DNA of 32,000 nt from Candidatus Brocadia sp. (GTDB lineage: Bacteria; Planctomycetota; Brocadiia; Brocadiales; Brocadiaceae). A program made the translations under genes and the position numbers. Within the stretch, counting starts at the first letter, position 1; each line of letters opens with the position of its first letter. Location of the stretch: contig CP091279.1 of the NCBI GenBank assembly GCA_021650915.1, forward strand, positions 750,001 through 782,000. The letters are read 5' to 3'. Under the pieces are notes generated by a model that did not search any database, was not told the origin of the DNA, and saw nothing but the letters and a program-made list of their open reading frames with translations. Positions 3,585-29,620 of the stretch are shown in pieces.

Positions 3585-4682
3585 ACAGCCGTGAATTCTA
3601 CGGCGTCTTATTGAGCGATATTAAAACCCGCATTCGCCAGGCGCAGGCCAACGCAATGCTTTCAGTTAATAGTGAGATGATTGCGATGTACTGGGACATT
3701 GGCAGGATGATTCATGACCGTCAGGAGCAGGAAGGTTGGTCGGCATCGGTTATTCCCAGGCTCTCCAAAGACATAAGAAACGAACTCCCTGAAATGAAAG
3801 GATTTTCCGAACGAAATCTTGGCAGGATGCTCGCATTTTTCCGCAACTACCAAAGTATAGAAGACTTTTTGCCACAGCTTGTGGCAAAAAGTGATCGTGT
3901 GAAATATTTGCCACAAGTTGTGGCAAAAACAAAACTTAAAGATTTGCTCTTTGGTATACCATGGGGACACCATTCCTTGCTTATGGAAAAGATCAAAGAG
4001 TTTCCAGTCCGTCTCTGGTATATGGAGCAGACCATCCAAAAAGGATGGAGCAGAGATATGTTGGGACTAATGATAAAAAACAGAGAGCATGAACGGCAGG
4101 GAAAATCGGTAACGAATTTTAGTCGAACGATTCCCGATCCAGGGTCCGACCTTGCAAGGCAGTCCTTGAAAGACCCCTATATTTTTGACTTTCTGACGCT
4201 GACAGAACCTTTTAATGAACGGGAACTGGAGACAGAACTGATAAAGCATCTTGAAAAATTCTTGCTTGAGCTGGGCGGCGGTTTCGCTTTTGTAGGAAGG
4301 CAATATCATATCGAAGTAAGCGGTAATGATTTTTATATTGATTTGCTATTTTACCATCTGAAATTGCGCAGTTTCATAGTGATTGAGCTAAAAAAAGGCG
4401 ACTTCAGGCCGGAATACGCGGGGAAGATGAACTTTTACTGTTCCGCAATTGATGACATGCTCAAACACCCGACCGACCGACCAACCTACCATCGGCCTTA
4501 TTTTGTGTCAAACGAAAGACAGAGTTCTTGCCGAGTATGCATTGCGGGACATGCATAAACCCATCGGTGTATCCGAATATGAACTGACCCGCTCATTGCC
4601 GGAAAATCTGAAATCCAGCCTGCCGAGCATTGAGGAGATTGAAGCCGAGCTTGGCAGAACAGTGGGAGGTAGTAATGAGTAA
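3575..4682 (+). pseudogene. YhcG/DUF1016-family PD-(D/E)XK nuclease-like gene, interrupted by a +1 frameshift at a (CCGA)3 repeat
   Basis: N-terminus 'YGVLLSDIKTRIRQAQANAMLSVNSEMIAMYWDIGRMI' and 'IPWGHHSLLMEKIK' fit the family. Nuclease core 'FYIDLLFYHLKLRSFIVIELKKGDF' (D...E-x-K). The family C-terminus 'PTIGLILCQTKDRVLAEYALRDMHKPIGVSEY' continues in the +1 frame (ORF 4449-4682). Removing one CCGA unit at 4469-4480 restores a single 367-aa frame. The start may be ATG 3575 or ATG 3581 (ATGA overlap with the hsdM stop). Confidence 0.75.
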
Positions 4683-5943: not shown

Positions 5944-6509
5944 TGGAGAAATTCAAAAATAGATACCGCATTCCATCGGCACGGGCGCCGTGGTGGGATT
6001 ATTCATGGCGCGGGTGTTATTTCATCACCATTTGCACCGCACAGCATGAATGTATCTTTGGCAAAATTCGAGACGGACACATGCAACCATCGCACATGGG
6101 CGAAATCGTTTTGCGGGAATGGGAACAATCGTTTCACATTCGGGCGGAATTATTTTGCGATGCATTTGTATTGATGCCCAACCATCTGCACGCCATTGTG
6201 CGGATTGGGAATGCCGATCCCACCACAATCGTAGAGACGCACGGCCGTGCGTCTCTACAAATGCACACGAACACGGGCATTGCACATCGTTCGCCCCGAT
6301 CCATTTCATCATTTGTGGCGGGATTCAAATCATCTGCAACCAAACGCATCAACGAATTTCGCAATACGCCCAAAATACCGGTGTGGCAATCCCGTTTCCA
6401 TGACCACATCATCCGCAACGTGGATGAATATCATCGAATTGCAGATTATATCAGAACCAATCCAGAAAAATGGGAAAATGATACATTCTTTAAACAGGAA
6501 ATACGATGA
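5943..6509 (+). CDS. IS200/IS605-type HUH Y1 transposase homologue of the REP-associated (RAYT-like, COG1943-type) kind
   Basis: HUH motif in 'LMPNHLHAIV'. 'WQSRFHDHII' block. C-terminal tyrosine region 'YHRIADYIRTNPEKW'. No TnpB partner and no flanking IS ends. The start overlaps the hsdS stop (TAATG) and the stop overlaps the hsdR start (ATGA). Confidence 0.8.
   Translation: MEKFKNRYRIPSARAPWWDYSWRGCYFITICTAQHECIFGKIRDGHMQPSHMGEIVLREWEQSFHIRAELFCDAFVLMPNHLHAIVRIGNADPTTIVETHGRASLQMHTNTGIAHRSPRSISSFVAGFKSSATKRINEFRNTPKIPVWQSRFHDHIIRNVDEYHRIADYIRTNPEKWENDTFFKQEIR
6231..6258. repeat. Perfect 28-bp palindrome GTAGAGACGCACGG/CCGTGCGTCTCTAC inside the RAYT-like CDS
   Basis: Checked by hand: the reverse complement of 6231-6244 equals 6245-6258. 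It encodes VETHGRASLQ on the plus strand, and the same ETHGRASL peptide appears in minus-strand ORF 6025-6312. Confidence 0.9.
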
Positions 6510-9500: not shown

Positions 9501-9538
9501 GTATTTTTCTGATCATAAAACAGCAGAGTGAGTATTGA
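6506..9538 (+). CDS. hsdR: Type I restriction-modification system, endonuclease/translocase subunit R
   Basis: N-terminal PD-(D/E)XK nuclease 'RPDIVIYVNGIALGVLELKRS'. Helicase motif I 'HTQGSGKSL', motif II 'VDECHRTQ', motif III 'FTGTPL'. 1010 aa. Confidence 0.93.
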   Translation: MNNIGKKERETQNRVIALFQEELDYRYLGNWEDRPNNSNIEEAILRKYLKEKKGYKNTLISKALYELGKAANNLNDGLYSANKKVYQLLRYGVKVKSEVGENYETVELIDWKRPLENEFAIAEEVTIQGNNEKRPDIVIYVNGIALGVLELKRSTISIGDGIRQNIVNQQKEFIQSFFTTIQWVFAGNDTQGLRYGTIGTPEKYFLKWKEEGAGGNLLDKYLLKLCDKARFLEIIYDFTLFDGGKKKLCRPHQYFGIKAAQGHVKRREGGIIWHTQGSGKSLVMVWLAKWILENNPHARVVIITDRDELDKQIERIFTDVGERMARTRNGRDLMDQLGKALPRMLCSLVHKFGRKGVDNFDAFIEEIKRSSSHTVGELFIFVDECHRTQSGKLHKTMKAILKNAIFIGFTGTPLLKQDRQTSLEVFGKYIHTYKFNEAVDDEVVLDLVYEARDIDQKLSSPQKIDEWFEAKTRGLNDFQKSELKKRWGTMQKVLSSRSRLEKIVSDIVFDFNVKPRLNSDMGNAMLVASSIYEACRYFELFQTTELKGKCAIVTSYNPSTRDITTEDTGANTETEKEYIYDIYKTLPGNKSTEKYEDEAKEKFVKEPSNMKLLVVVDKLLTGFDAPPCTYLYIDKSMQDHGLFQAICRVNRLDSDDKEFGYIVDYKDLFRKVENAVAVYTSELDYDTFEKGDVDVLLKDRLEKGRERLDNALEEIALLCEPVAPPKDSLAYIRYFCGDPENEEDLKVHEVKRTSLYKQTVAVIRAYANIAAEMEEAGYTQAEIADIKKKVDYYLKLREEIRNASGETLDLKTYEADMRQLIDTYIQAEESRTISPFADMSLLDLLVNSGIADAINRLPEGIKRNKEAVAETIENNVRKKIMQEHLTDPAYFEEMSKLLHEIVKERRTNAINYEAYLKKIAELAKKVSNPAKDNLPASIKSSNARRALYNNLNYDEELAVVMDEAVRYVKKADWRGNDAKEREIKKALYDILKDANEVERIFLIIKQQSEY

Positions 9539-9539
9539 T

Positions 9540-10241
9540 ATGCTGCAAATCAAATTGAGTAATTTACCTATTGATGTAATTCAAAAGGATATCAAGCATA
9601 TTCATCTGAGTGTTTATCCACCAATTGGCAGGGTAAGAATTTCCGCTCCCTTACGCATGGACCTGGAAACGATTCGGGTTTTCGCTCTATCAAAATTAAA
9701 TTGGATAAAGAAACAGCAGCAAAAGTTGCTCGACCAGGAACGAGAAACCCCAAGGGAATATGTAACACAGGAAAGCCATTACTACCTGGGCAAGCGATAC
9801 CTGATGAAAGTTATTGAGCATAATGCTGCTCCGAGAGTCGTTTTAAAGCACAGCGCTATTGAATTGTATATAAGACCTGATATAAGTAGAGAAAAAAAGC
9901 GGGCCGTTTTGGATGAATGGTATCGCCAAAAACTGAAGGAAATCGTTCCGGAATATATCGCCTACTGGAAGGAAAAGATGAAACTGGAAGGGATTGAGTA
10001 TGCCATAAAAAAGATGAAAACAAAATGGGGCACTTGTAATAGAGAGGCAAAAAGAATCTGGTTAAATCTTGAACTTGCCAAAAAGCCAAAGGAATGTATT
10101 GAATATATCATTGTGCATGAAATGGTGCATCTGTTAGAACGTCATCATAATGAAAGATTTATTGCGTACGTGGATAAGTATTTGCCAAAGTGGCGATTTT
10201 ATAAAGAGGGGTTGAATAAACGCCCGTTGGGCCATGAATAG
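9540..10241 (+). CDS. YgjP/DUF45-type M48-family zinc metallopeptidase
   Basis: HExxH zinc motif 'VHEMVHLLERHH' preceded by 'TKWGTCN'. ATG 9540 lies 1 nt after the hsdR stop. The ORF track allows GTG 9528. Confidence 0.8.
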   Translation: MLQIKLSNLPIDVIQKDIKHIHLSVYPPIGRVRISAPLRMDLETIRVFALSKLNWIKKQQQKLLDQERETPREYVTQESHYYLGKRYLMKVIEHNAAPRVVLKHSAIELYIRPDISREKKRAVLDEWYRQKLKEIVPEYIAYWKEKMKLEGIEYAIKKMKTKWGTCNREAKRIWLNLELAKKPKECIEYIIVHEMVHLLERHHNERFIAYVDKYLPKWRFYKEGLNKRPLGHE

Positions 10242-16653: not shown

Positions 16654-18114
16654 TTATGTAGAAACCGTTTCCATTATGGGTTTCGAAACCGTTACCGCAC
16701 TTGATTTATAGCAATCCTTATAGTAGTCGCCAGAATCATATAACTCTTTCAAATTTAGCAACACCTGTTCAAACACTTGTTTCCAATCGGAACCCACCCT
16801 GAAAGCAAACATGGAATTCCGGGGATTTTTCGTTGTCTTAATAGAATTCCTGAAGCGCGTCCGTAAGTTATCACCTGCATAAACATGATCATATACATAT
16901 TGCATACCCTCGATAAAATCTTCTAACGTCATGTCAACGAGGCGGTGAACAACATGAGCCGTGTCATAATATTGCCAGTCCTCAGGATAATTCTTTCTGA
17001 AAATCCTCTTTTCTGAATCCAGTCTTGAATAAAGCTGTGTTTTTGGGAATGGGCAGTTGATTCCAAAGGTAAGGATATCAATATTATTTTCCAGGATAAA
17101 CTCGGTCATTCTCTTAAAGGAATCTTTATCGTCTCCGTCCGCACCAAACACTACGGAACCCCATACGACTAAGCCTGCGTTATGTATTTTTTGGATGCAA
17201 TCAAAATAACTATCTGTGCCTAATTTAAGATTTACCCGCTTATTCATCTTCTCCAAAACCGCCTCATTGGTAGATTCAATACCGATAAGCATGCCAAAGT
17301 TACCGCTCTTGGCCATATAGTCTAAAGTCTCAGCATCCTGGGAAATATTTAAGGCCGTGAATCCCAACCAGTCTTTGTGTATGCCACGGTCTACCATTCC
17401 TTTAAAAAGATCCCGCGCCCTCTCATTTGACTTTTTACCGTGCCCATAGAAGTTATCCTCTGCAAGCATTAAACCCTTATAATCTGTTGCGGCCATCTCA
17501 TCGAGAACATCTTCATAAGGTCTTTCCCTGAACTTTCTGCCCTGGAAAGTGGGCACACTACAGAAATCACAGTAGTTCGGACATCCTTTTGTTGTCACGA
17601 TAGAGGAAAACTTATAGTTATATTTTTTCTTCATAAGCTCCCGGTTTGGATATACCTTTTTCATCAGGCTGAGAGGCGGTAATCCTCCCTCATAAATCTT
17701 TTTCAGCTTTCCTGCTTCAAAATCTTTTATTACCTGAGGCCACACTTCTTCTGCTTCGCCGACAAAGACGGAGTCAACATAATTTGCTGCTTCTTCTGGC
17801 ATTACCGACGCATGTATCCCACCCATGATTACCGTCATGCCTTTCTTCCTGCAAGCCTCAGCAATTTTATAAGCACGAGGAGATTGGTAGGTAACTGCGG
17901 TAATACATACAAGATCAACAGGCTTAAAGGTAAGTTCTCCGTTATCATCAATTGCCAATTCCAGATTCTCATCAATAACATCAAAATCCCAATCGCCTGG
18001 TGTAAGCGCAGCAACATAAGCAAGATTCAGCGGCATTTGAACGATTACGGTAATACTCTCTTCACCATGCCTACCCGGTTTGTGTGGGTTAATCAACATC
18101 ATTTTTCTCTTCAT
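16654..18114 (-). CDS. B12-binding (class B) radical SAM enzyme
   Basis: Radical SAM cluster motif CxxxCxxC in 'TKGCPNYCDFCSV'. The N-terminal cobalamin-binding-type domain runs about 140 aa ('VCITAVTYQSPRAYKIAEACRKKGMTVIMGGIHAS'). GGAGGT lies 6 nt before the ATG, inside the upstream gene end. Confidence 0.88.
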   Translation of the reverse strand: MKRKMMLINPHKPGRHGEESITVIVQMPLNLAYVAALTPGDWDFDVIDENLELAIDDNGELTFKPVDLVCITAVTYQSPRAYKIAEACRKKGMTVIMGGIHASVMPEEAANYVDSVFVGEAEEVWPQVIKDFEAGKLKKIYEGGLPPLSLMKKVYPNRELMKKKYNYKFSSIVTTKGCPNYCDFCSVPTFQGRKFRERPYEDVLDEMAATDYKGLMLAEDNFYGHGKKSNERARDLFKGMVDRGIHKDWLGFTALNISQDAETLDYMAKSGNFGMLIGIESTNEAVLEKMNKRVNLKLGTDSYFDCIQKIHNAGLVVWGSVVFGADGDDKDSFKRMTEFILENNIDILTFGINCPFPKTQLYSRLDSEKRIFRKNYPEDWQYYDTAHVVHRLVDMTLEDFIEGMQYVYDHVYAGDNLRTRFRNSIKTTKNPRNSMFAFRVGSDWKQVFEQVLLNLKELYDSGDYYKDCYKSSAVTVSKPIMETVST

Positions 18115-18118
18115 AAAT

Positions 18119-19579
18119 TTACCTCCACTTCTCCTTCTCCATAATTAAATTAGCTACACCCCATCCAGAAGACACAACCGCACAAATTCCAGGACCAGGC
18201 CTCGTCCAATGACCGGTTAAATACAGATTTTCAACCGGTGTCTGAGGGGACAGTCTGTTCTCTCCTATTTGATCCACAGTAACCTCCCAGCCATAAGCGG
18301 CTCCATCGGTATTTAATGTGTATCGCTCCAAAGTTTTTGGGGTAGCTGCTTCGATTACTTCAATATAATTTTTTATATCAGGAACATATTTCTCTATCCG
18401 GCCTATTGTGTCCGCAGTCATGTTTTCTTTAAAAGATTTCCAATTTATAACATGTCTGTACTTCTCCTTCTCAAGATACACTACCACAGAAATTATTTGT
18501 TTGTCTGGCGGGGCAAGTGTTGGGCATATCATTGTTGGAATTGAAACGTACAACCACACCGTATCTTTGTAACTTGCATCAGAAGCAGTATGATAAAATC
18601 CTCTTTTTAATTCACGTAAATCTGCGCCTTTACCAATACCTAAATATAAAAGAAAAAAGGAGCAACTTTCCCTCATCTCTTCAATATTTTTAAGAAACGC
18701 GGTGTCTAATTTTCCGTCCAACAATTCAAAAAAAGTCTTTCGGGCATCGATATTTGAAATAACGAGATTTGAGGATAGTTCTTTCCCTTCCTGCAACTTG
18801 ACACCAACCGCAGCGTTGTTGGTGCGTATGATTTTTTCGGCTTTGCATGATAGCATAACATGCCCGCCTAAATCAATAAATTTCTTAAAAAAGGCATTAG
18901 CAAACTCTTGCGTACCTCCTGCAGGAAAAAAAGCGCCATCTTTGAGATAGTTGATCATCATTTGACACATACCGATAGCAGAAGCTTTAGTAGGGGGGAG
19001 ACCTATGTAGCCCCATTGGCCGGAAAGTATCATCTTGAGCTCGTCATTATGGAGAAAAGCATTGAGCATCGCACCATACGTCTGGTCTCTGTATTTATCA
19101 AGAATTTGGCTTTTTTCGTTATTAAAGGTAGCGCGGTAGAGTTTTAGAAAATCCTGAAAGAAATGCTTGATACCATCCTTTTCCAATGGGTAACGATCTT
19201 GCAACCGCGCGATGTATTCGTCCAAATCGGCCGGGATTTCAATGGTAAAGTTGGGAAAAATCAAATGGTCCATGGGATCGAGAAGATGAAAATCCATCTC
19301 TATCCCCAAGGTTTTCAGACAACGCCCCACAATCCCCCATTTCCCACAGCCCCCAATATGATGAACTGCCGCATCAAAATTGAAACCTTTTCTTTTAAAG
19401 GAGGTACAATAACCGCCAGGAATGGAATGGTGTTCAATGATAAGCACCTTTTTCCCGGCCTTGGCAAGAACTGTGCCGCAAACCAAGCCAGCAACGCCTG
19501 CACCAATTACAATCGCATCATAATGAGGATACAATGCATCCTTTTTTGTAGATTGAATGCATCGGCTGGAAGGTGTCAT
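18119..19579 (-). CDS. FAD-dependent oxidoreductase of the phytoene desaturase (CrtI/CrtD, COG1233-like) family
   Basis: Dinucleotide fold 'YDAIVIGAGVAGLVCGTVLAKAGKKVLIIE' followed by 'GGYCTSF'. C-terminal 'LYLTGHWTRPGPGI' block. The start lies 3 nt after the upstream stop. Confidence 0.85.
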   Translation of the reverse strand: MTPSSRCIQSTKKDALYPHYDAIVIGAGVAGLVCGTVLAKAGKKVLIIEHHSIPGGYCTSFKRKGFNFDAAVHHIGGCGKWGIVGRCLKTLGIEMDFHLLDPMDHLIFPNFTIEIPADLDEYIARLQDRYPLEKDGIKHFFQDFLKLYRATFNNEKSQILDKYRDQTYGAMLNAFLHNDELKMILSGQWGYIGLPPTKASAIGMCQMMINYLKDGAFFPAGGTQEFANAFFKKFIDLGGHVMLSCKAEKIIRTNNAAVGVKLQEGKELSSNLVISNIDARKTFFELLDGKLDTAFLKNIEEMRESCSFFLLYLGIGKGADLRELKRGFYHTASDASYKDTVWLYVSIPTMICPTLAPPDKQIISVVVYLEKEKYRHVINWKSFKENMTADTIGRIEKYVPDIKNYIEVIEAATPKTLERYTLNTDGAAYGWEVTVDQIGENRLSPQTPVENLYLTGHWTRPGPGICAVVSSGWGVANLIMEKEKWR

Positions 19580-19582
19580 GAA

Positions 19583-20824
19583 TTACGGTTTGTATTTGGA
19601 GATAATTAAAGACGAATTGTTTCCCAATCGCGAGAAGGTGTTGATAAGGACATTTTTGACGGGTAATACCCTTGCGGTATTGGCTACATAATCTAAATCA
19701 CAGTCGGGGTCCCGTTCCTTATAGTTAATGGTGGGAGGCACGGTGTGAGCGTTGATAGACATTACAGCGGCTATTGTTTGCAATGCCCCGGATGCGTCAT
19801 AGCATTCTCCTGTCATAGATTTAATAGCACTTACAGGAATAAGCTGTGCGCGCATACCAAAAACTTCTTTCATAACCTGGGTTTCCATTGCGTCGCCGTA
19901 GATACCAGAATAAGCATTTGCTGATATGTAAGAAATGTCATTCAGCGTCAGGTTTGCATCCTGAATGGCGCTCATGATGGCTCTTTTGTTGCCGTCTATT
20001 TGATAGTCCTTACTAATAGCCATTTTCGGGTCAAACGCAGTCCCATATCCCTTTATTTCTGCATAAATAGGCGCATTCCGTTTCAAGGCATCCTCAAGAG
20101 TTTCCAGAATAACCAGGGCAGAAGCCTCGCCAATAACCATTCCATTGCGTCTTTTGTCAAAGGGCGCAGAGATTTCCTCATTTCCTTCCCTACTCCCCGA
20201 TAATATCCGTGAATTGTGAGCTCCCCAAAAGATGTCGTGCGTTAATCCATGCACGCCACCGGCAATTACGGCCTTTACCCGACCCATCCGAAGAAAATCT
20301 GAGGCATAAATAATTGCATCAACGCTGCTGGTTACCCCATTCGATATGGTGGTATTCAACCCCGTGGCCTTACAAAAGATAGAGGCGCGGCTGGCAGGTG
20401 CATTCAATACCGTATTCGGAAAATCCATAGGATTAACATAATTAGGACCTTCACGCAAGGATTGAAAATCGAAAGAGCTAATGCTATCAATACTTCCATA
20501 CGTCGAACCAACAACGATTCCCAGTTCATCGCCGTTGTATGTATTATTTTCTAAGTTAGCATCCTTTATGGCAAGGACGGTGGCAGAAGACACGAGCAGG
20601 GAGGTTCTGTCGATATGACGTATTCCCTTTTGCCCCAAGTATACCTTTGCGTCAAAATCAGAAATTTCGCCCGCCTGTTTGCTTTTAAATTTACTTACAT
20701 CAAATAAGGTGATGGGTTTAATGCCTGATACACCATTGGCTAAATTTTTCCAAAAAATCTCTTTTTGATTTCCAATCGGTGAGATAACAGAAACACCGGT
20801 AATAACGATCCTTGTTTTTTCCAT
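19583..20824 (-). CDS. Ketosynthase paralogue lacking the Cys-His-His triad (chain-length-factor-like)
   Basis: Full-length thiolase-fold alignment to the adjacent FabF. TACAAG is replaced by NGVTSS (Cys to Val), AHGTGT by ANAYSG (His to Asn), and GHTMGA by GECYDA (His to Glu). ATG 20824 has AGAGG 6 nt upstream; the track starts at GTG 20827. Confidence 0.85.
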   Translation of the reverse strand: MEKTRIVITGVSVISPIGNQKEIFWKNLANGVSGIKPITLFDVSKFKSKQAGEISDFDAKVYLGQKGIRHIDRTSLLVSSATVLAIKDANLENNTYNGDELGIVVGSTYGSIDSISSFDFQSLREGPNYVNPMDFPNTVLNAPASRASIFCKATGLNTTISNGVTSSVDAIIYASDFLRMGRVKAVIAGGVHGLTHDIFWGAHNSRILSGSREGNEEISAPFDKRRNGMVIGEASALVILETLEDALKRNAPIYAEIKGYGTAFDPKMAISKDYQIDGNKRAIMSAIQDANLTLNDISYISANAYSGIYGDAMETQVMKEVFGMRAQLIPVSAIKSMTGECYDASGALQTIAAVMSINAHTVPPTINYKERDPDCDLDYVANTARVLPVKNVLINTFSRLGNNSSLIISKYKP

Positions 20825-20875
20825 CACGAACCTCTGTTTATCGATACGTATACAGCTCCGAGAAACTGCCTGATT

Positions 20876-22108
20876 TCAAGTCTTGCCAGTAAATTTTTTA
20901 ACCACCAAACAACTATTGTTACCACCAAATGCATGGGCATTGTTCAGTGCAATGGTAACCTTCTGCTTTCTTGCAATATTAGGCACATAATCCAAATCAC
21001 ACTCCGGATCAGGTGTTTCATAATTGATCGTAGGAGGTATGATGTCGTTTTGAACAACCAGGGCGCAGGTAATAGCTTCTATAGCACTGGCCGCACCCAT
21101 CGTATGACCCATCATCGATTTTATCGAACTAATCGCGAGATGCTCAGGTTTATTCCCAAAGACCTTTTTAATAGAGATCGTTTCTGCTTTATCATTAGCA
21201 GGGGTTCCCGTACCGTGTGCACTCACATATTGGACATCTCCGGGCTGAAGATGTGCGCTTTTTAGGGCCTTTTTCATAGCGGAAACAACACCTTCCCCAT
21301 CTGGGTGAGGGATGGTAATGTGATATGCGTCACAGCTAAGGCCGTAACCAATAATTTCCGCATAAATATTGGCATTTCTCTGTATCGCATGATCAAGCGA
21401 TTCTAAAAGAAGCATGCCAGCGCCCTCGCCAACCATCATTCCCTTCCGATTTTTATCAAATGGCTGGCATATTTCAGGTGCAATGGCGCCTAATCTCGCA
21501 AATCCTGTGTAAGCAACTTTTGAAAAAGGATCGGAACCTCCGGCGACCATCAGATCCACCCGGCCAAATTTAATCAAATCATATGCATACCCAATTGCAT
21601 AATTGCCGGCAGCACAAGCAGTAGGAATAATCGTGTTTGGTCCCTTAAATCCAAACTCAATTGCAACATTTGCTGGAATATTATTACAGGGGTGCATCAA
21701 AAAGAGATCGGGGTCTACCTTGTCCTCTCCGTCTTTGTGTCTGATATAATTGACTTTTTCCAGAATCTGTATTTCTCCTGCCGTCGTCCCAACAGACACG
21801 CCAATTCTTTCCAAAGCAGTCTTACCTAAATCAAGCCCGGCGTCATCCAAAGCAAGTCGCGTAGCTGCGATCGCAAACTGAGAACCCTTACCAATTTTCT
21901 TGAGAACGCCATTCTTAATATAATCAGAATACTTGAAGTTTTTCACCTCACATCCCTTGTGAACCTTATATTCTGAAGTGTCAATACACGATACATCATC
22001 TACTCCAGAAGCACCCGCAATAAGGTTACTCCAAAATCCTTCCTTTCCCGATCCAATGGGAGTAATCATTCCTACACCAGTAATAACAACACGTTTATTC
22101 ATAAGCAA
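20876..22108 (-). CDS. fabF: 3-oxoacyl-ACP synthase II-type ketosynthase (intact active site)
   Basis: Active-site Cys '[14 protein letters not shown]'. His motifs '[15 protein letters not shown]' and '[13 protein letters not shown]'. The start is TTG 22108 or ATG 22102. Confidence 0.9.
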
Positions 22109-22119
22109 TTATACTATGA

Positions 22120-22575
22120 TCAATCAGATATTAATGCGTTCTTGTCTGCAATTCCAAAAGTCAAAGTTGCTTTAGCAACCGACTTATCTCCGACTTTTAC
22201 CATTGCCTGAACAATGGCCCCTTTGGATACAATCTTTTCTACCAAAATCTCTATAACGAGTTGATCGCCTGGAAAAACGGGTTTTGTAAATCTGGCATTG
22301 TTCACTGAAGCTAATAAAAAAACCGAATCCCCAGTGATTTGTGTGGAAAGACTTTTCCTGAAAAGGATAATGGAGGCTTGAGCCATCGCCTCTATAATCA
22401 ATACACCAGGCATGATCGCAAAGTCGGGGAAATGTCCAACAAAGACAGGTTCATTGCCGGAGACATTCTTTACACAAACAATCCTTTTCCCTTCTTCAAA
22501 CTCAACAGCTTTATCGATGAACAAAAATGGATATTTTTGAGGAAGAAGAGACCGTATTTCCTCAAAAAAAATCAT
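22120..22575 (-). CDS. fabZ: 3-hydroxyacyl-ACP dehydratase
   Basis: 'LPQKYPFLFIDKA' and 'GHFPDFAIMPGVLIIEAMAQ' (catalytic His and Glu). 151 aa. Confidence 0.9.
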   Translation of the reverse strand: MIFFEEIRSLLPQKYPFLFIDKAVEFEEGKRIVCVKNVSGNEPVFVGHFPDFAIMPGVLIIEAMAQASIILFRKSLSTQITGDSVFLLASVNNARFTKPVFPGDQLVIEILVEKIVSKGAIVQAMVKVGDKSVAKATLTFGIADKNALISD

Positions 22576-22647
22576 TTCCTATAACCCATCTTCTTATTAA
22601 TCAGTAAAATATACACGTTAATTACGTAGCTCTTTGTCTTGAATGAT

Positions 22648-22917
22648 TTACGAAGAAAGTTTTCCACTTTCCGCCAGAACAGATTTTGTTAAATCAATGG
22701 TTGCGCTTAAACACGTAATGTCAACCAGTTTTTCTTCAGGAATTTGCACCTTAAATTTTTTTTCAATAAGCGCCAGGATTTCAAGGGCTAAAAGGGAGTC
22801 TATTTCAAGATCTTTAAAGAAGTTTGCATCTCTTTTATCCCAAATTTCTTTTTCGTCCAATTCTGTGACCTCTGCAACTATCGCAGTTACACCTTTCTCA
22901 ATTTCTTCTGCGTTCAA
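22648..22917 (-). CDS. acpP: Acyl carrier protein (dedicated)
   Basis: Phosphopantetheine attachment motif 'LEIDSLLALEI'. 89 aa. TTG start 22917 has AAGGAGGAG 8 nt upstream. Confidence 0.88.
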   Translation of the reverse strand: MNAEEIEKGVTAIVAEVTELDEKEIWDKRDANFFKDLEIDSLLALEILALIEKKFKVQIPEEKLVDITCLSATIDLTKSVLAESGKLSS

Positions 22918-23160: not shown

Positions 23161-23772
23161 CTACCTTAGCCCTTTTAACGACTTCTTTTCATAACGTAAT
23201 TCCCTTCGTCTGTATTTATCCAACTCTTTCAATGCCTTATATACCTGCATCTCTAGCATCGTTTCATATTTAGATAATTCCATACTTCCGTTTTTATTTT
23301 CCATCATCTTCATGGCCTTCAACTGTGAAAGCTCCTTATTTGTCCTCTTTCGCGTCCTCAGAAATCCTTGCTCATATTCCTGGATACAAGAGGTATTGTA
23401 TTCTATTATCTGGCTTTCTATTTTCAAACATCGTTTTAACCGCCAAATACTTGAAATTATGCGATCGACAATAAGCAATTCTATTGCATTAGATGGTTTC
23501 AATTCATTCACAAGCTTATTTCTTAACTCATCAAGGTCGGAACTTTTTTCCCCCTCTAGCAATATTTCACGACTAAATATATATTGGCTTGCATCATTCT
23601 CTCCTGGTTTCATTGACTCTGAGGATATATTATTTTTCATAGCCTCCGTCTTTAAAGGGCTTAATGTTCCGCTTGATTCAACAATGGTACTCATTATCCT
23701 ATCTACTTTTTCTTTAGCAGAAATCTCTTTACTTTTTCCGTGTAAAACATCCTCTTTTAAAATCGTTGACAT
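23161..23772 (-). CDS. Hypothetical protein (203 aa from ATG 23772; ORF open to TTG 23853)
   Basis: Long AT-rich ORF with no motif I recognise. GAGGGAG lies 6 nt before ATG 23772, and there is no SD at 23853. The C-terminal half is predicted helical ('ELLIVDRIISSIWRLKRCLKIESQ'). Confidence 0.5.
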   Translation of the reverse strand: MSTILKEDVLHGKSKEISAKEKVDRIMSTIVESSGTLSPLKTEAMKNNISSESMKPGENDASQYIFSREILLEGEKSSDLDELRNKLVNELKPSNAIELLIVDRIISSIWRLKRCLKIESQIIEYNTSCIQEYEQGFLRTRKRTNKELSQLKAMKMMENKNGSMELSKYETMLEMQVYKALKELDKYRRRELRYEKKSLKGLR

Positions 23773-24088
23773 TATCTTCTCCCTCTTAATAATATCAGTA
23801 TAATATCTTGCTAAAACATCACATACTATCTCATAATCAATGAAACTATTCAATAAAATATTTTAACATTTATGGATTTCGTCTCTTATCGTCATAAAAG
23901 ATGCTATACTGGGTGGGATCGGCAAATCAATCTATAATTACTACGAAAAAGAGTGACAAAAAATGGTGTGCCGCGTGGAATAAATGTGACACCACGGTGG
24001 TTTATGTTTACAAGCTTTAAAACGAATTGATACAAAAGATTCGATTTGTGAAGGGTTTGGTGCAGACGGGTCTCTGTTTGGCAAAACT

Positions 24089-24757
24089 TTATAACGCCGT
24101 TTTAGGATTGCCAAAAATATACTCTGTCTGTTCAGGTGGAATTGCACTACCAAGATCTGCAAGAAATTCATTGGCCAATTGTAAAGCACTCGCGATGCTA
24201 TCTTCTCTTGTAGGAATAGAAAGTCTGACCATTAAACCATTCCTCTTTTTGTTAATCAATGAGAACCATAACTGTTTTATTTTTTGTCCTGTCCAATCAA
24301 CAATATTTTTGTCAATACACATCCAATAAATCATCAAAAAACCCTCCGCATCCTTTTCAACGTACAGGCAGTATGCTCGAAGATCGCGATTTAAAACATG
24401 GAATTCGCTGTCATTTAATTCTGTCACTTTAAAGCCAGAGCTACTAGAACACACCTTTGGGTTGTGAAAATTGCCAGCATCCAGTATTAGCAAAAAAAGA
24501 CTATCGCCATCCTTGTTTATATACTCTCTATCCAATGTCTGGCTAATAAAAGCGTACTTTTCATCGTCGCTATTCCAATCTTGCTCAGCTTCAGTATCCG
24601 TTCCTAGCCATCCAGTAAATTCCAGTGGTATTTTGAGCTGAGAGATAATATTCTGACTTTCATATTTAGCCTTTGGAAAGGTAAAGCAATAAATGCTGGT
24701 AAATAGCAATATTGCAATCGTAATCCACCCCTTCTTGTTAATACTCATCGTGCACAT
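24089..24757 (-). CDS. epsI: Exosortase-associated EpsI-family protein
   Basis: N-terminal membrane anchor, then 'IPLEFTGWLGTD', 'LDREYINKDGDSLFLLI' and 'FHNPKVCSSSSGFKV' (the family H-x-P-x-x-C-x-x-x-x-G block). An alternative ATG at 24748 forms an ATGA overlap with the exosortase stop. Confidence 0.75.
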   Translation of the reverse strand: MCTMSINKKGWITIAILLFTSIYCFTFPKAKYESQNIISQLKIPLEFTGWLGTDTEAEQDWNSDDEKYAFISQTLDREYINKDGDSLFLLILDAGNFHNPKVCSSSSGFKVTELNDSEFHVLNRDLRAYCLYVEKDAEGFLMIYWMCIDKNIVDWTGQKIKQLWFSLINKKRNGLMVRLSIPTREDSIASALQLANEFLADLGSAIPPEQTEYIFGNPKTAL

Positions 24758-25560
24758 CTTTCTAGCATGAACTCTAATCCAATTAATCCCGACACAATAA
24801 AAACAAATATTACAATTCCGCTAAAACTATGAAAAAAACCCTGGCCGGTTTCTTCACCAAAATAATAGGTAATAAGGCATAATGCTATAATACGAATAAG
24901 ATTGCCTAGGACTGCAAAAGGAACTATGGAAGAAACGAGAATAGTTTTTCTGAATAAACTGCTCCTGCTTAGGTATACATAAACCAGAGACAAAGAAAAC
25001 ATCGTAATTATAGAACGAAAACCGCTACAGGGTTGTCCCATAAATAATTCGCTCTCTCCGATCGTTAATAAAAGTCCTTCTCTTGATATAGGAAAATGAA
25101 AAAATCCGAGAATTATTTCGGTCATCACGGAAAGGCCGTATCGCATTGGAAGTGTGAGATCATCCACAATTCCGATGGGAATGGGCACCAAAAGCAACAG
25201 ATATAAAAGAGGAAATAATACAATCCTTGTTGCCTGAAATCCGTAAAGATAGGTTGTCAGCCCTAATAAAACAGGGAGTAAAGAAAGTGTCGTTATAAAT
25301 GAATACTGCTGACGCCAGCCAAAAATAAACAATAGAATTCCAACAAGAAAGCCAAAAAATCCCATGAGATTGTGGTCAAGTCTAGATTTTTGAATTGCCT
25401 CCTTTAAGGTTGTTCGTTTCCTCCAGATAAGCCAAAAGAACACAGGCAAGATAAAATAGGCATGCGTATAATCGAAAGCCTTCCATTCAGAACGATAAAG
25501 GTTAAAAAAAAGCGGTGTATATAAGATAACTATCATCGCCCAAATTATATAATTAATCAT
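24745..25560 (-). CDS. Exosortase (polytopic membrane transpeptidase-like protein)
   Basis: 'WKAFDYTHAYFILPVFFWLIW' N-terminal signature. Catalytic Cys 'MGQPCSGFRSIITMFSL'. 'LPMRYG' Arg. 'FHSFSGIVIF' His. About 8 predicted TM helices. Confidence 0.85.
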   Translation of the reverse strand: MINYIIWAMIVILYTPLFFNLYRSEWKAFDYTHAYFILPVFFWLIWRKRTTLKEAIQKSRLDHNLMGFFGFLVGILLFIFGWRQQYSFITTLSLLPVLLGLTTYLYGFQATRIVLFPLLYLLLLVPIPIGIVDDLTLPMRYGLSVMTEIILGFFHFPISREGLLLTIGESELFMGQPCSGFRSIITMFSLSLVYVYLSRSSLFRKTILVSSIVPFAVLGNLIRIIALCLITYYFGEETGQGFFHSFSGIVIFVFIVSGLIGLEFMLERCAR

Positions 25561-25778
25561 GCTATGGCTCGGGATTTAAGTATAGTAAACGAAATAATTG
25601 TTCGATTATCGGCGAGGTAATTGAGATTTTCCATGCAGAAATCTGAAATGATAAAATTTTGATACCACTAAAATAGTTTGCAGAGAGGTGAACCGGCCTG
25701 CATCTTCGCTGCGATCAAGGACGTTCGTTATTCGCAAACCGCAAGCATTCGTTCATGGTTTCTCCTTTGCATCCACTA

Positions 25779-25814
25779 TCGCTACCCTTCTCTATGTTAT
25801 AGGAAGGGTAGCGA
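25779..25814 (-). other. Conserved 3' stem-loop after PEP-CTERM gene 1
   Basis: TCGCTACCCTTC-12 nt-GAAGGGTAGCGA, 33 nt after the stop. It is homologous to 26503-26541, with compensatory changes between the copies. Confidence 0.5.
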
Positions 25815-25846
25815 GATTTTACCAAATATAATTAATACTAACTATT

Positions 25847-26092
25847 TTATGAAACCCCTTCTTTGTCTTCATGGTGCTGACAAACTGCTTCCTTTGATTT
25901 CCACTTCCTCCGTAAATATCGTAAACCAACGAATGCACCACCTCCAGCCGCAAAAAGAACACTACTTATAGGTTCTGGTACAGGCTTAGGCGGTTTTTTC
26001 TTTCCTTTAGCGTCCGCAGAGTTGACAACTATCGTTGTGGTTAACACCAGGGCAAATAAACATCCTCCAAATTTCATGAATCTTTTTTTCAT
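25847..26092 (-). CDS. Minimal PEP-CTERM protein 1 (81 aa)
   Basis: Signal peptide 'MKKRFMKFGGCLFALVLTTTIVVNSADA', then 10 Lys/Pro-rich residues. PEP-CTERM domain 'VPEPISSVLFAAGGGAFVGLRYLRRKWKSK', plus a 14-aa tail. GGAGGAGG SD. Next to the exosortase/EpsI genes. Confidence 0.7.
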   Translation of the reverse strand: MKKRFMKFGGCLFALVLTTTIVVNSADAKGKKKPPKPVPEPISSVLFAAGGGAFVGLRYLRRKWKSKEAVCQHHEDKEGVS

Positions 26093-26186
26093 ACTCCCCT
26101 CCTCCTTAACATTAATTACCCCCCATTACCCAATACAAGCACGAATTTTTTCATACCAAGTTAATTGCTCATGGTATTATCGCCAG

Positions 26187-26215
26187 ATTCTAAAATATTT
26201 TTCTCATTTTGTCTA
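26187..26215 (-). promoter_or_regulatory. Possible promoter of PEP-CTERM gene 1
   Basis: On the minus strand: TAGACA (26215-26210), 17 nt, TAGAAT (26192-26187). Confidence 0.3.
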
Positions 26216-26349
26216 ATACTAAAGCATCTTCACTTATCTGCTATGCCTTCTTATTATCTCCACCACCACCCAATTATACCCATTTTTTGCATCCCTTTGT
26301 TTGTAAATATTTCCACATTCGTTGAATGTTTCTGCCACACATAGCACTA

Positions 26350-26460
26350 TAAACAAAAAAGCCTTACTGCAAGAATGTTTACTAAAATCAACAACTTCAA
26401 CAGTAAGGCTATCTTTTAAAATACCTTGTTAATGCGACTTAAGGACTTCAACTCCAGTTA
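26350..26460 (-). repeat. Copy A of a ~100-nt repeated element ending in an intrinsic terminator
   Basis: On the minus strand: ...AAGTCCTTAAG...AGATAGCCTTACTG-31 nt-CAGTAAGGCTTTTTTGTTTA. The flanks and stem are shared with copy B (30231-30331), and the loop differs. Confidence 0.55.
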
Positions 26461-26502
26461 TCACTGTGATTTGCATTCTTCATAGTTTTAAAATGTTCAG
26501 GA

Positions 26503-26541
26503 TCTCTACCCTCCCTTCTTTTTAGATAGAGAGGGTAGAGA
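26503..26541 (-). other. Conserved 3' stem-loop after PEP-CTERM gene 2
   Basis: TCTCTACCCTC-17 nt-GAGGGTAGAGA, 33 nt after the stop. Confidence 0.5.
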
Positions 26542-26573
26542 AATTTTACTAAACATGATTAATACAAATTAAG

Positions 26574-26819
26574 TTATGCAATTCCATTCCTGGCATCATC
26601 CTGCTGACAAATTACCTCTTTTGATTTCAACTTTTTCCTTAAATACCGCAAACCAACTAAGGTACCACCGCCAGCGCCAAAAAGAATGCAACTGATAGGT
26701 TCCGGTGCAGGTTTAGGCGGTTTTTTGTTTCCCTTAGCATCTGCGGAGTTGATAACTATCATCGTGGATATCACCAAGGCAAATAAACATCCGCCAAATT
26801 TCATGAATCTTTTTTTCAT
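26574..26819 (-). CDS. Minimal PEP-CTERM protein 2 (81 aa)
   Basis: Paralogue of 25847-26092, with 58 of 81 residues identical by hand alignment. 'APEPISCILFGAGGGTLVGLRYLRKKLKSK' PEP-CTERM domain. GGAGGAG SD. Confidence 0.7.
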   Translation of the reverse strand: MKKRFMKFGGCLFALVISTMIVINSADAKGNKKPPKPAPEPISCILFGAGGGTLVGLRYLRKKLKSKEVICQQDDARNGIA

Positions 26820-27506
26820 ATGCTTCTCCTCCTACAAAGTAATCAAAAATAATTTTATACGAACTCGAATTCTTGCTTCTTTTCCTTCTACTTCTAAACA
26901 ACCGCTCTTAAATCAATTTTCGTTTTCCCTCCTTTCGAAATTATTCCCTAATCTTTTTTTATCACTCCTGAATATATCTCATTTTACTTATCTTTTTTTC
27001 TGTTGATAATCATGAGCAAGGATGATGCCAAAAAGGAAATATCCTTCTGTCCGTTGGTTTTCCTGGGTTTTCATTATTATAAATACGAAGACATGCGATA
27101 TCTTTACCACACCGGTTTAAAACAGTTTTTAAATAAATGCTTATACGACAAACAGATACAAATGCGACCAAAACATCACACCATATGCGGTTGTTCTAAC
27201 CCATGATAGAAGGTATTTCAAACCTGATGCAGCAGACTTCTGGCGATGTAGTTTCATACATTGCTGCTTACTATACTCCACAGGCTCACAATTTGTGATT
27301 TATAGTAGTTCAACACGGACAAACAGAGTTTGTCCATGCCACCTTATTATCAATTTAAAATTCACATTTTATGAGCATCTTGGGTATATCTGCCGCAATA
27401 CAAGCAAACAGCCTTTAAATAATTTCAAATTTTGATTTACATTTTAACACGTAACCTCGCGCCCTACCCTTACAAACTTTTTCTTTGTAATCAAATCCCT
27501 TCGCAC

Positions 27507-27577
27507 AAAAAAGGCAGACAAGAGACGATTTCTTTCGTGTCGCTTTGACCGCGGGAAACGCCCCCCGTCTGCCTTTT
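27507..27577 (-). terminator. Possible terminator after the LamG protein gene (long-loop hairpin + T-run)
   Basis: On the minus strand: AAAAGGCAGAC-47 nt-GTCTGCCTTTTTT, beginning 37 nt after the stop at 27614. Confidence 0.35.
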
Positions 27578-27613
27578 AGCCTACTTTTCAACGCCTAATT
27601 AAGGATGTCTTAT

Positions 27614-29620
27614 TTAGTTGTTGAATATGTCTTGAACCTCCTGATCGGTCAAAGCCCGATTGGAGAGACAAACCTCATCAATGATGCCATTGAAACAACC
27701 CTTTTTCGAGAGACTATTCCCGATTTTTGTGTCAGAATAATACGTTAGCGGAACTACGGTGTTACCCGCTTTATGCCGTACGGTTCTTACCAGTTGTCCA
27801 TTGACATATAACTTCTGTTCACCGGTGGTCTTGTTGTATGTGCCTGCAACATGATTCCAACCACCCACGGAATTACCCATATTATATGACGCCGTCCTCT
27901 GCCTCTTGTTTCCACTTGCGTCTTGCGTCACCAGGGCAAATGCAATTACATCAGGAGTTCTTTTGAGAAACTTTAAACCAAAACCTTCGCGTAATTGCGG
28001 ATTAGAATGCATCCTCAATCCGTCGAAGATAAAATCATACCCCTTCGTGTCATTTGCATTCTTATAGAACCATGCGCTCAGGGAAACTTCCTCGCTATTA
28101 ATGACCGGAATTGATACATTATCATCAACACCGTCAAAACTCAGGCCACTGCCATTTCTTCCGCCGGTCCAGCTTGCGCCATTGATCGTGCCGTCATTAC
28201 CGTTGCCTGACGAGTCGCCAGCAACATTTCCGCTTCCTTCATCAAAGGAATAACAAGCCTGTGCATCTGGGCATGGGCATAGTGGCGGTGTTGTTGACTC
28301 CCATATCTTTGTGACCTGATTCGATGTTTTGGTCTGTCCTGTGCTATCGACAAAGCTTGCCTCGATCACGTCTGTGCCTGCAGCACTACCCGTGTAGGTA
28401 AATGTTGCATGTCCATTGGCATCGGTCGAGTTATTGCTAGAAAGCCCTGCATGCGGACCAGAAACGATCGAGAAAAACACATTGCGTCCTACGATCGGGG
28501 CACCATTGTCATCCTGAACGGTTGCCGTCACGGTATGCTGTGTTCCTACCGGATTGGTGGCAGTTGTTGGTCCCAAAACGATGCCTTCCCCAACGACTGC
28601 GATGGCTGACCTAATGGATAATCCTGCAAAAAAGATACTGTCATCGTTTGAAGGATTAATGGTATTTATTACCATACTCGTATCACCGGTATTGACAAAA
28701 GGCAGAATATCATAGAGTTCATCATCGTCACGAGGATCTGTCGCGCTCGCATTTGGATCCGGCGGATTAGCAGTACTGTCACCAATACCACCAACTGTTA
28801 TCAGTACTCCGTTACCCCCAAGAGTACCGTCATCTTGACCACCTGCAGAAGAGGTAAGTCGCTGACCATTGATATCTACATGGCTCTCTTGTCCTGTCGG
28901 GCCTAGTTGGTAGCTGAAAGAAATTCCCAAGGAGAATTCCATTCCCAGATTCGGATCGCTCTTGTCTATGGGGTCAGAAAATAATACGTTAAATGTATCC
29001 CCGGTAGTATTCTGGGCGCCAAACATGAGAACGATGGTGTTGCTCACGGATTGATTGGGATCATCAAAGATTACCGCCAGAATGGAGCCATCCAGGTACA
29101 TGGTTTCAACAACGGGGATATCGATAATACCCGCCGGAGCGGCATCAACGACTGGTTTTACGATGCTTGTGACATCAGCCCAGGCATGGTTCGGCCCCCC
29201 GAAGATAGCGTTTAGTTTTACATGTAAACTCCAGTTTACCGGAGTGCCGTTGAGTTCAATCGCCCCGTTTGGCAATGGCCCAGGATTACCATTTGAACCC
29301 CACACATCAGCCGCTGCCATGTACGCGCCTCGTACCGTTGCTCCCGCTGGCTTATTCACCTGAATATTTCCGGAAGAGTCTGTACCGAGGCCATCAACAG
29401 ACAATGAAATAAGACCAGTTTCAGTCACCACAGGTTGCAGCGCTGTAGCTGATGCAGCCGCTGGCATCATGGACTGGCTTATCTTTGGACCCGCAGCGGA
29501 TTCTTCGGAAACAGTGCCCGGCACCGGACTACTGTTTGCGAAAGTCTGAACAGCACCGGCAGCTACTAATACTGCTATCAAGAAAAATGCTATGAAAAAT
29601 TTAGATCTTATTGCTTTCAA
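27614..29620 (-). CDS. Secreted protein with an unknown N-terminal domain, a bacterial Ig-like (Big_1-type) domain and a C-terminal LamG/concanavalin-A-like lectin domain
   Basis: Signal peptide 'MKAIRSKFFIAFFLIAVLVAAGAVQTFA'. Ig-like 'GTQHTVTATVQDDNGAPIVGRNVFFSIVSGP...DANGHATFTYTGSAAGTDVIEA'. LamG_3-type 'YSFDEGSGNVAGDSSGNGNDGTINGASWTGGRNGSGLSFDGVDDNVSIP...NGIIDEVCLSNRALTDQEVQDIF'. The TTG start has AAGGGAGGA 7 nt upstream. Confidence 0.85.
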   Translation of the reverse strand: MKAIRSKFFIAFFLIAVLVAAGAVQTFANSSPVPGTVSEESAAGPKISQSMMPAAASATALQPVVTETGLISLSVDGLGTDSSGNIQVNKPAGATVRGAYMAAADVWGSNGNPGPLPNGAIELNGTPVNWSLHVKLNAIFGGPNHAWADVTSIVKPVVDAAPAGIIDIPVVETMYLDGSILAVIFDDPNQSVSNTIVLMFGAQNTTGDTFNVLFSDPIDKSDPNLGMEFSLGISFSYQLGPTGQESHVDINGQRLTSSAGGQDDGTLGGNGVLITVGGIGDSTANPPDPNASATDPRDDDELYDILPFVNTGDTSMVINTINPSNDDSIFFAGLSIRSAIAVVGEGIVLGPTTATNPVGTQHTVTATVQDDNGAPIVGRNVFFSIVSGPHAGLSSNNSTDANGHATFTYTGSAAGTDVIEASFVDSTGQTKTSNQVTKIWESTTPPLCPCPDAQACYSFDEGSGNVAGDSSGNGNDGTINGASWTGGRNGSGLSFDGVDDNVSIPVINSEEVSLSAWFYKNANDTKGYDFIFDGLRMHSNPQLREGFGLKFLKRTPDVIAFALVTQDASGNKRQRTASYNMGNSVGGWNHVAGTYNKTTGEQKLYVNGQLVRTVRHKAGNTVVPLTYYSDTKIGNSLSKKGCFNGIIDEVCLSNRALTDQEVQDIFNN

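Follow-up and report, generated by a model that had tools for sequence, protein, structure and literature searches.

The window analysed here is a stretch of 32,000 nucleotides (nt) from contig CP091279.1 of Candidatus Brocadia sp. (NCBI GenBank assembly GCA_021650915.1, positions 750,001 to 782,000 of the forward strand). Coordinates are those of the window, except where they follow the handle of another collected locus (L001 and so on). The subject of the analysis is a pair of tandem genes on the minus strand, here called mini1 and mini2, which lie directly upstream of the genes for an exosortase and EpsI and encode proteins of 81 amino acids (aa) in which a signal peptide is followed almost at once by a PEP-CTERM-like sorting region. 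These four open reading frames (ORFs) had been described in an earlier reading made from the sequence alone, and their positions and strand were confirmed from the ORF list. The locus contains the following features.

24089–24757, minus strand: EpsI (DUF3485), 222 aa; its gene overlaps that of the exosortase by 13 nt
24745–25560, minus strand: exosortase, 271 aa, without a Shine-Dalgarno sequence, of an unnamed subtype between XrtB and XrtV
25779–25814, minus strand: strong hairpin 3' of the mini1 stop codon, between mini1 and the exosortase gene
25847–26092, minus strand: mini1 (KKO19134.1), predicted minimal PEP-CTERM protein of 81 aa, from the ORF list and hidden Markov model (HMM) searches
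26098–26107, minus strand: Shine-Dalgarno sequence of mini1, AAGGAGGAGG
26187–26215, minus strand: sigma-70-like promoter candidate for mini1, TAGACA-17-TAGAAT, 10/12 positions, a consensus match only
26503–26541, minus strand: strong hairpin 3' of the mini2 stop codon, ~35 nt beyond it, without a U-tract
26574–26819, minus strand: mini2 (BROFUL_02178, KKO19135.1), predicted minimal PEP-CTERM protein of 81 aa, from the ORF list and HMM searches
26826–26833, minus strand: Shine-Dalgarno sequence of mini2, AGGAGGAG
27614–29620, minus strand: secreted Big_1 / Laminin_G_3 (LamG) protein of 668 aa, without a PEP-CTERM tail, 5' of the mini genes

In the direction of transcription the order is the 668-aa protein, a spacer of 794 nt, mini2, a spacer of 481 nt, mini1, a spacer of 286 nt, the exosortase and EpsI. 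The two longer spacers (26820–27613 and 26093–26573) are unusually long and AT-rich (GC ~35%) and contain no ORF of note. A scan of positions 23800–27700 against Rfam at E ≤ 1 returned zero RNA families, so the long spacers do not correspond to a known riboswitch or small RNA. Both mini proteins are identical to proteins of Candidatus Brocadia fulgida (KKO19134.1 and KKO19135.1), the species to which the window is assigned, their exact sequences recur on ~80 independent contigs, and a public protein 100% identical to mini1 bears the annotation 'PEP-CTERM motif'.

Alignment of mini1 with mini2 gave 58/81 identical residues, with residues 1–16 all identical, as the sequence-only reading had counted by hand. 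Signal peptides were called by inspection. Both copies have the basic n-region MKKRFMKF, a 15-residue h-region and the sequence NSADA, which provides A-D-A at positions −3 to −1 (the A-x-A pattern); the signal peptide comprises residues 1–28 in mini2, and the Ala at −1 is nearly invariant across the family to which the two proteins belong. The segment between the signal-peptide site and the PEP motif, here called the passenger, is KGKKKPPKPV in mini1 and KGNKKPPKPA in mini2, and PEP occupies residues 39–41 in both. The sorting region reads VPEP-ISSVLFAAGGGAFVGL-RYLRRKWKSK in mini1 and APEP-ISCILFGAGGGTLVGL-RYLRKKLKSK in mini2. The tripartite PEP-CTERM signal (PEP, an abutting hydrophobic helix that is Gly-rich here, and a basic cluster) is present in both proteins, as are all the other elements reported previously, and a further 14 residues follow the basic cluster in both. 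A lipoprotein reading of the FGGC sequence in the signal peptide was considered and rejected, as the Cys is not preceded by a hydrophobic stretch and other genera do not have this Cys.

Several properties of the DNA mark mini1 and mini2 as genes. The ratio of non-synonymous to synonymous substitution rates (dN/dS, Nei-Gojobori) between the two copies is 0.24 overall, and both evolve under purifying selection. It falls to 0.14–0.16 in the signal peptide, the passenger and the transmembrane (TM) and basic parts and reaches 0.84 in the C-terminal 14 residues, a tail that evolves almost neutrally. AGGAGG ribosome-binding sites stand before both mini genes and before neither the exosortase nor the EpsI gene. 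The duplicated DNA unit extends from the ribosome-binding site to the hairpin ~35 nt beyond the stop codon. In mini2 an 83-nt segment at this position folds at −28.3 kcal/mol (z = −5.1 versus shuffled sequence) and in mini1 an 81-nt segment folds at −26.2 kcal/mol (z = −5.4), and a compensatory change of G:C to T:A distinguishes the two hairpins. The mini2 hairpin is probably a terminator, an attenuator or an mRNA stabiliser. Strong hairpins of unrelated sequence were also found 3' of mini orthologues in six other loci.

The PEP-CTERM assignment made from the sequence alone was examined by scoring both proteins against TIGR02595, and both fell narrowly below the cut-off of 16 bits (mini1, 14.2; mini2, 14.4). 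This cut-off was passed at 16.5–21.2 bits by 8/10 full-length relatives tested, namely the paralogue P0004 of the same genome (18.1), the B. sinica (18.3) and Jettenia (21.2) proteins, Kuenenia copy 2 (19.8) and four proteins of uncultured Brocadiaceae (16.5–20.8), and the relatives that pass align end to end with mini1 and mini2. Across 27 family members the E of the PEP motif is invariant and the flanking P nearly so, and PGAP and UniProt name relatives of the mini proteins PEP-CTERM proteins. Since the window copies score below the cut-off and their homologues pass it, the placement of mini1 and mini2 in the PEP-CTERM class is supported through sequence homology to the passing members; the motif layout described in the sequence-only reading stood, and both window copies narrowly failed the HMM test that it had proposed. 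No model specific for the mini family was found among the NCBIfam and Pfam models scanned on the window copies and their relatives.

The exosortase passed all three generic models (TIGR02602, 159.7 versus a cut-off of 105.6; PF09721, 191.5 versus 25.7; TIGR04178, 65.3 versus 23). Its putative catalytic residues are Cys178 (in PCSGFRS), Arg223 (GNLIR) and His244 (FFH), and C178, R182, R223 and H244 are invariant in ten exosortase orthologues. Classification to subtype, proposed earlier as a check, produced no assignment; neither the XrtB model (TIGR03113, 196 versus 275) nor the XrtV model (NF035943, 190 versus 313) was reached, and the same sub-cut-off pattern was repeated by six orthologues from three phyla (Brocadia and Jettenia of the Brocadiales, Nitrospirota and Omnitrophota). 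The exosortase belongs to an unnamed, well-conserved clade of 45–77% identity that extends over several phyla, and an unnamed subtype common to Brocadiales, Nitrospirota and Omnitrophota is thereby defined. EpsI likewise passed its general models (TIGR02914, 56.6 versus 42.8; PF11984, 70.9 versus 26.1) and missed those of the B-type (NF045609, 66 versus 220) and V-type (NF045608, 48.5 versus 228). A gene for a UDP-sugar pyrophosphorylase (PF01704) was observed between the exosortase and EpsI genes in Jettenia (L008, 7789–9312) and in an uncultured member of the Brocadiaceae (L016, 7183–8619).

In order to follow the family, a profile of seven close homologues was searched against 1.84 billion representative proteins, which returned 50 matches, mostly of 53–98 aa. 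A profile of 27 family sequences returned 46 matches, all of 70–119 aa and each with its own signal peptide. All named matches of this second profile came from Brocadia, Brocadiaceae, Kuenenia or an unclassified Planctomycetes genome. The sequence-only reading had held that homologues existing only as fragments of longer, decayed genes would speak against it; none of the 46 was such a fragment. Loci for comparison were collected by contig look-ups and by an exosortase scan of Genome Taxonomy Database (GTDB) species genomes, giving 79 further loci, and the mini-family HMM was run on every ORF of 40 aa or longer in the collected loci. In 14/14 Brocadiales loci a mini member of 72–93 aa was located upstream of the orthologous exosortase-EpsI pair on the same strand, at a distance of 3 nt to 3.7 kb from the exosortase gene. 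Within this set, one mini gene is interrupted by the end of its contig, another contains a frameshift in an assembly of long reads, and one ORF measured 118 aa solely through the longest-ORF rule. The earlier proposal of a protein with almost no passenger, tied to the adjacent exosortase, was supported, and the search for the gene beside exosortases of other genomes, which had been suggested as a check, was positive in this survey. In L091 (metagenome-assembled genome [MAG] 'Planctomycetia bacterium H5_AMX3') the mini gene (3–160) and a neighbouring companion gene, described below, (199–780) are both frameshifted, which reflects either long-read indel errors or real decay.

Genomes of the family hold 1–4 copies of the target, and the genome of the window holds four. 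The other two form a second tandem pair, BROFUL_01647/01648, of 75 and 82 aa (L002, 9656–9883 and 10001–10249; also L003–L005), in which the tail of the 75-aa copy is truncated and different and the 82-aa copy is followed by a hairpin. A tandem pair is also present in a MAG of Kuenenia stuttgartiensis (L014, 6001–6445), with one copy of 78 aa that has a tail and a second of 72 aa that ends at the basic cluster and is directly operonic with the exosortase. The Kuenenia pair comes directly before the exosortase, in a polysaccharide-export neighbourhood (Bac_transf, Wza-like, Wzz and PilZ) followed by a PAS-GGDEF-EAL protein, which suggests a link to extracellular matrix and c-di-GMP control.

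Passengers of the family vary in length from 8 to 31 residues (median 13) and in net charge from −3 to +6 (median +2); Gly + Pro make up 41% of the residues and Ser + Thr 7%. With charges of +5 and +4, mini1 and mini2 are at the cationic extreme; the Jettenia passenger, GHGATDGVPPNA, has a charge of −1, two members have −3, and that of B. sinica is KSGGGGRPVPV. The polycationic decapeptide of the sequence-only reading is accordingly a feature of the B. fulgida lineage and not a general one. The tail beyond the basic cluster had also been singled out previously. Its median length is ~12 residues in 34 mini ORFs (range 6–19 in the mini family) versus 1 residue in 71 regular PEP-CTERM ORFs found with the same exosortase clade, and it is on this difference that the extra tail is recognised as a real, family-wide derived trait. 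The Cys-Gln pair that had been pointed out within it is not conserved in the family and is confined to the B. fulgida lineage. A short [K/R]-S-K-E/x-L stretch just past the basic cluster is semi-conserved and the remainder of the tail is variable; Kuenenia copy 2 has no tail at all.

Outside the Brocadiales, exosortases of this clade from Omnitrophota, other Planctomycetota and Auribacterota (45–60% identity) have between one and seven regular PEP-CTERM ORFs of 130–800 aa beside them. Because such ORFs flank the clade elsewhere, PEP-CTERM proteins encoded nearby are its normal partners, which the anammox bacteria appear to have replaced with a cargo-less version. Within ~250 kb of Brocadiales loci the only matches were mini proteins. 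The orthologous loci of Nitrospirota (L029, L030, L033–L036, L040, L041, L044, L048, L049, L051, L070, L078 and L084) contained no PEP-CTERM-like ORF within 5 kb. The exosortase-EpsI pair of Nitrospirota sits in glycosyltransferase-rich polysaccharide clusters.

Taken together, we favour, with rather more confidence than doubt, the interpretation that mini1 and mini2 are real and probably highly expressed genes, part of a family of minimal PEP-CTERM proteins found throughout the Brocadiales, and that their products would serve as dedicated-type substrates of the adjacent XrtB/XrtV-like exosortase-EpsI system. Regular adjacency of enzyme and target, the mark of a dedicated system, was found in all 14 Brocadiales loci; the mini family may be, but need not be, the sole substrate of the enzyme in the genome. 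In the searchable library no paper was found that links exosortase/PEP-CTERM with anammox bacteria or that describes cargo-less PEP-CTERM proteins. The genes combine a strong ribosome-binding site, a promoter candidate of their own, a 3' hairpin placed before a poorly translated enzyme gene and 2–4 copies, an architecture that resembles other pairs of abundant substrate and scarce enzyme. The strong ribosome-binding sites, the 3' hairpins and the four copies in this genome suggest that the substrate would be abundant.

The proposed pathway has four steps. Export by the Sec system and cleavage by signal peptidase I after NSADA would yield a bitopic precursor of 53 residues, with the N-terminal 10 residues and PEP facing outward and the TM helix, basic cluster and tail facing inward. 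The exosortase, through Cys178 and its Arg and His residues, would then recognise PEP and the helix and cleave at or near PEP. The resulting Lys/Pro-rich stub of 10–13 residues (Gly/Pro-rich and mildly basic in other genera), which would read KGKKKPPKPVPE(P)-X after processing, would be transferred to an acceptor or released, and the helix and tail would be discarded. Candidate acceptors are an extracellular polysaccharide or, on the model of archaeosortase A, a membrane lipid. The signal-peptide cleavage site, the topology, the processing by the exosortase and any attachment are inferred from sequence, and the attachment step is pure inference by analogy, borrowed from archaeosortase A and rhombosortase.

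In most anammox genomes a gene of a further family, here called the companion, was observed immediately upstream of the mini gene (L001, 9381–9983; L007, 5994–6563; L014, 5386–5982; L015, 4540–5304 and 5349–5951; L016, 5358–5954; L017, 1943–2515). It encodes a secreted protein of 190–250 aa with a conserved YWYFAW motif and a C-terminal C-x-F-x-V, and by hmmsearch the family was found in Brocadiales only. No companion gene was detected in the window by tblastn, and the gene is also missing from Jettenia. Pfam and NCBIfam scans assigned no domain to the companion. It may be a partner of the mini protein. An origin by gene fission, with the companion as the former passenger, was examined and is not supported; hhalign comparison with eight clusters of regular PEP-CTERM passengers returned similarity in the signal peptide only.

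A number of observations weigh against the favoured interpretation. In addition to the sub-cut-off scores with TIGR02595, both window copies are below the cut-off of PF07589 (mini1, 19.2 and mini2, 12.6 versus 20.7). Haft et al. (2006, PMC1569441) counted fewer than 10 residues beyond the 24-residue region in 87% of PEP-CTERM proteins, the median being 3, and mini1 and mini2 have ~19 residues beyond the HMM region, which is therefore not at the extreme C-terminus. The passenger is conserved in neither sequence nor charge; were the peptide the product, its composition would be all that counts. A model of a substrate that is simply cut and discarded leaves the family-wide cytoplasmic tail unexplained. 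Linkage is also incomplete, as no exosortase lies anywhere near BROFUL_01647/01648, which have a folC-like Mur-ligase gene on one side and PSP1 on the other, and in L015 a mini gene and two companions occur without an adjacent exosortase. In an alternative explanation the mini proteins would be stable membrane partners of the exosortase rather than carriers of cargo, whether as a pseudo-substrate regulator or decoy, as an adaptor, or as an anchor or acceptor for other proteins. The PEP-helix would dock in the enzyme, the cytoplasmic tail or the outward Lys/Gly/Pro linker would be the working part, and the protein loaded could be the secreted companion (190–200 aa) encoded just upstream in most Brocadiales. 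In favour of such a role are the 6–19-residue tail, gained by the mini family and not seen in regular substrates of this exosortase clade, the semi-conserved [K/R]-S-K-E/x-L stretch, a passenger of variable sequence that can be positive in one member and negative in another, and the unanchored secreted companion that precedes the mini gene in most Brocadiales and stands with it in L015. The tail beyond KSKE, however, is nearly neutral between the window copies, is absent from Kuenenia copy 2 and is truncated in one B. fulgida paralogue; the companion is missing from the window and from Jettenia; and strong ribosome-binding sites, four copies and 3' hairpins fit a product needed in stoichiometric amounts better than a regulator of a scarce enzyme. 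It is because of the added cytoplasmic tail and the conserved secreted companion that this explanation retains some weight, and we consider it possible though unlikely.

The two other explanations concern the fate of the peptide and the status of the genes. The exosortase could release a short, cationic, Pro-rich peptide with an antimicrobial, signalling or matrix-binding role, with the PEP-CTERM region acting as a membrane-tethered C-terminal leader. The B. fulgida stub is KGKKKPPKPVPEP-like with a net charge of +4 to +5, and the signals for high expression, together with multiple copies, resemble precursor-peptide genes with hairpins. The cationic character is not maintained in the family, as the charges of Jettenia and of the two members at −3 demonstrate, no transporter, immunity or modification gene was linked in any examined locus, and in the known relatives, ArtA and rhombosortase, the product is anchored and not released (Haft 2023 preprint); we regard release as improbable. 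That the genes are functionless, either the orphaned tail of an ancestral PEP-CTERM protein or spurious ORFs, is the least probable of the explanations, and we give it very little credence. It draws on the regular-sized PEP-CTERM genes that hold the equivalent position in other phyla and on the secreted protein of 190–200 aa, with an F-x-V-like strand at its end, that most Brocadiales encode immediately before the mini gene. The profile-profile similarity of that companion to regular passengers is limited to the signal peptide, and no mini member is without a signal peptide and a ribosome-binding site of its own. Decay and spurious ORFs are largely excluded by the purifying selection on the two copies, by the retention of the gene across Brocadia, Jettenia, Kuenenia and uncultured Brocadiaceae, and by the uniform small size of all 46 homologues.

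Within the favoured interpretation, in which the mini proteins are exosortase substrates, a more specific and doubtful proposal is that of a peptide conjugate. From a ribosomally made precursor consisting almost wholly of sorting signal, a Gly/Pro/Lys-rich stub of 10–15 residues would be transpeptidated onto a lipid headgroup or an extracellular polymer as an abundant, genetically encoded modifier of the surface or matrix, influencing aggregation or granule formation. If so, the modifier would be strongly cationic in B. fulgida, the product would be the first of defined chemistry for a PEP-CTERM/exosortase pair, and it would be the first case in which the cargo is a peptide and not a protein. 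To our knowledge the chemistry of no such pair has been established, and since 2006 nobody has shown what an exosortase does to a PEP-CTERM protein, that is, the cut site and the acceptor. The C-termini of typical substrates are difficult to map because these proteins are large, of low complexity and probably glycosylated. The mini family would be a natural minimal substrate, with a mature ectodomain of 10–15 residues that has almost no Ser or Thr and a gene conserved beside the enzyme across the order. Processing would leave one small product, directly identifiable by mass spectrometry, and the family could therefore serve as a tractable natural probe of exosortase function and chemistry. It also flags a candidate lineage-specific surface or matrix component in anammox bacteria, whose aggregation matters for wastewater treatment.

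Directly downstream of EpsI the window contains a putative ladderane-lipid gene cluster, 'Cluster I' (16654–22917, minus strand), the gene tags of which match those in bioRxiv 10.64898/2026.05.19.726425. This region comprises the following genes.

22648–22917, minus strand: amxACP (Broful02173)
22120–22575, minus strand: amxFabZ
20876–22108, minus strand: amxFabF2 (Broful02171)
19583–20827, minus strand: amxFabFmut (Broful02170)
18119–19579, minus strand: amine-oxidase/phytoene-desaturase-like gene, after the fab genes
16654–18114, minus strand: B12-binding radical SAM gene, after the fab genes

The exosortase locus is beside Cluster I in the window, in Jettenia, in L016 and in L017, and does not adjoin it in Kuenenia, B. 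sinica or L001; in Kuenenia, exopolysaccharide (EPS)-export genes and GGDEF/EAL take the place of the cluster. A functional link of the exosortase locus to the ladderane cluster was considered and rejected, and the adjacency was treated as inherited gene order and not as evidence. The adjacency would be meaningful if the acceptor were a lipid. Between EpsI and amxACP lies a gene for a conserved protein of ~203 aa (23161–23853, minus strand; 23161–23772 from the likely start at Met28), in which Pfam and NCBIfam scans found no domain. It is 52–58% identical to ORFs that occupy the equivalent position upstream of amxACP in Jettenia (L008, 11667–12278), L016 (2779–3360) and L017 (4564–5163) and is probably an anammox-specific partner of Cluster I. 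In L001 a Big_5 repeat protein is encoded between the mini gene and the exosortase. Elsewhere in the window, a type I restriction-modification system occupies positions 1158–10241 of the plus strand (hsdM, 1158–3584; hsdS, 4630–5943; hsdR, 6506–9538). A YhcG/DUF1016 PDDEXK nuclease gene (3575–4558, plus strand) is located between hsdM and hsdS, and the region also includes an unassigned ORF of 188 aa (5943–6509) and a YgjP-like metallopeptidase gene (9528–10241), both on the plus strand.

Compared with known systems, the window exosortase most resembles XrtB and XrtV, whose subtype models score best on it. The shared features are a length of ~270 aa, eight predicted TM segments, the Cys/Arg/His signature and a separate downstream EpsI gene; the difference is in the scores, which are 190–208 bits for the window protein and its orthologues and thus well under the cut-offs. 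With PEP-CTERM proteins as first described (TIGR02595/PF07589; PMC1569441) the mini proteins share the signal peptide, the PEP motif abutting a Gly-rich helix, the Lys/Arg cluster and the exosortase neighbour. Typical PEP-CTERM passengers, however, run to hundreds of residues (in ORFs of 130–800 aa beside the same clade), as opposed to 8–31 in the mini family and 10 here, and the typical tail has a median of 1–3 residues where the mini family has its extra 6–19 on the cytoplasmic side. At 7% Ser/Thr, the idea of a glycosylated low-complexity cargo, usual for PEP-CTERM proteins, does not apply to the mini passenger. Dedicated systems of the JDVT-CTERM/MrtJ type (Haft 2023 preprint) likewise have the target gene regularly beside the processing enzyme across a clade. 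They differ in that mini targets occur in 1–4 copies per genome, some of them unlinked, that a hairpin comes after the mini gene, which forms a tight operon with the enzyme gene in Kuenenia only, that the exosortase clade is many-to-one in other phyla, and that the targets of the known systems carry real cargo domains. Archaeosortase A, which acts on PGF-CTERM proteins such as the S-layer glycoprotein of Haloferax volcanii, belongs to a homologous enzyme family and is the only experimentally supported model, in which removal of the C-terminal helix is coupled to attachment of a lipid (Haft 2023 preprint); it differs from the mini system in coming from archaea and in having a large glycoprotein as its cargo.

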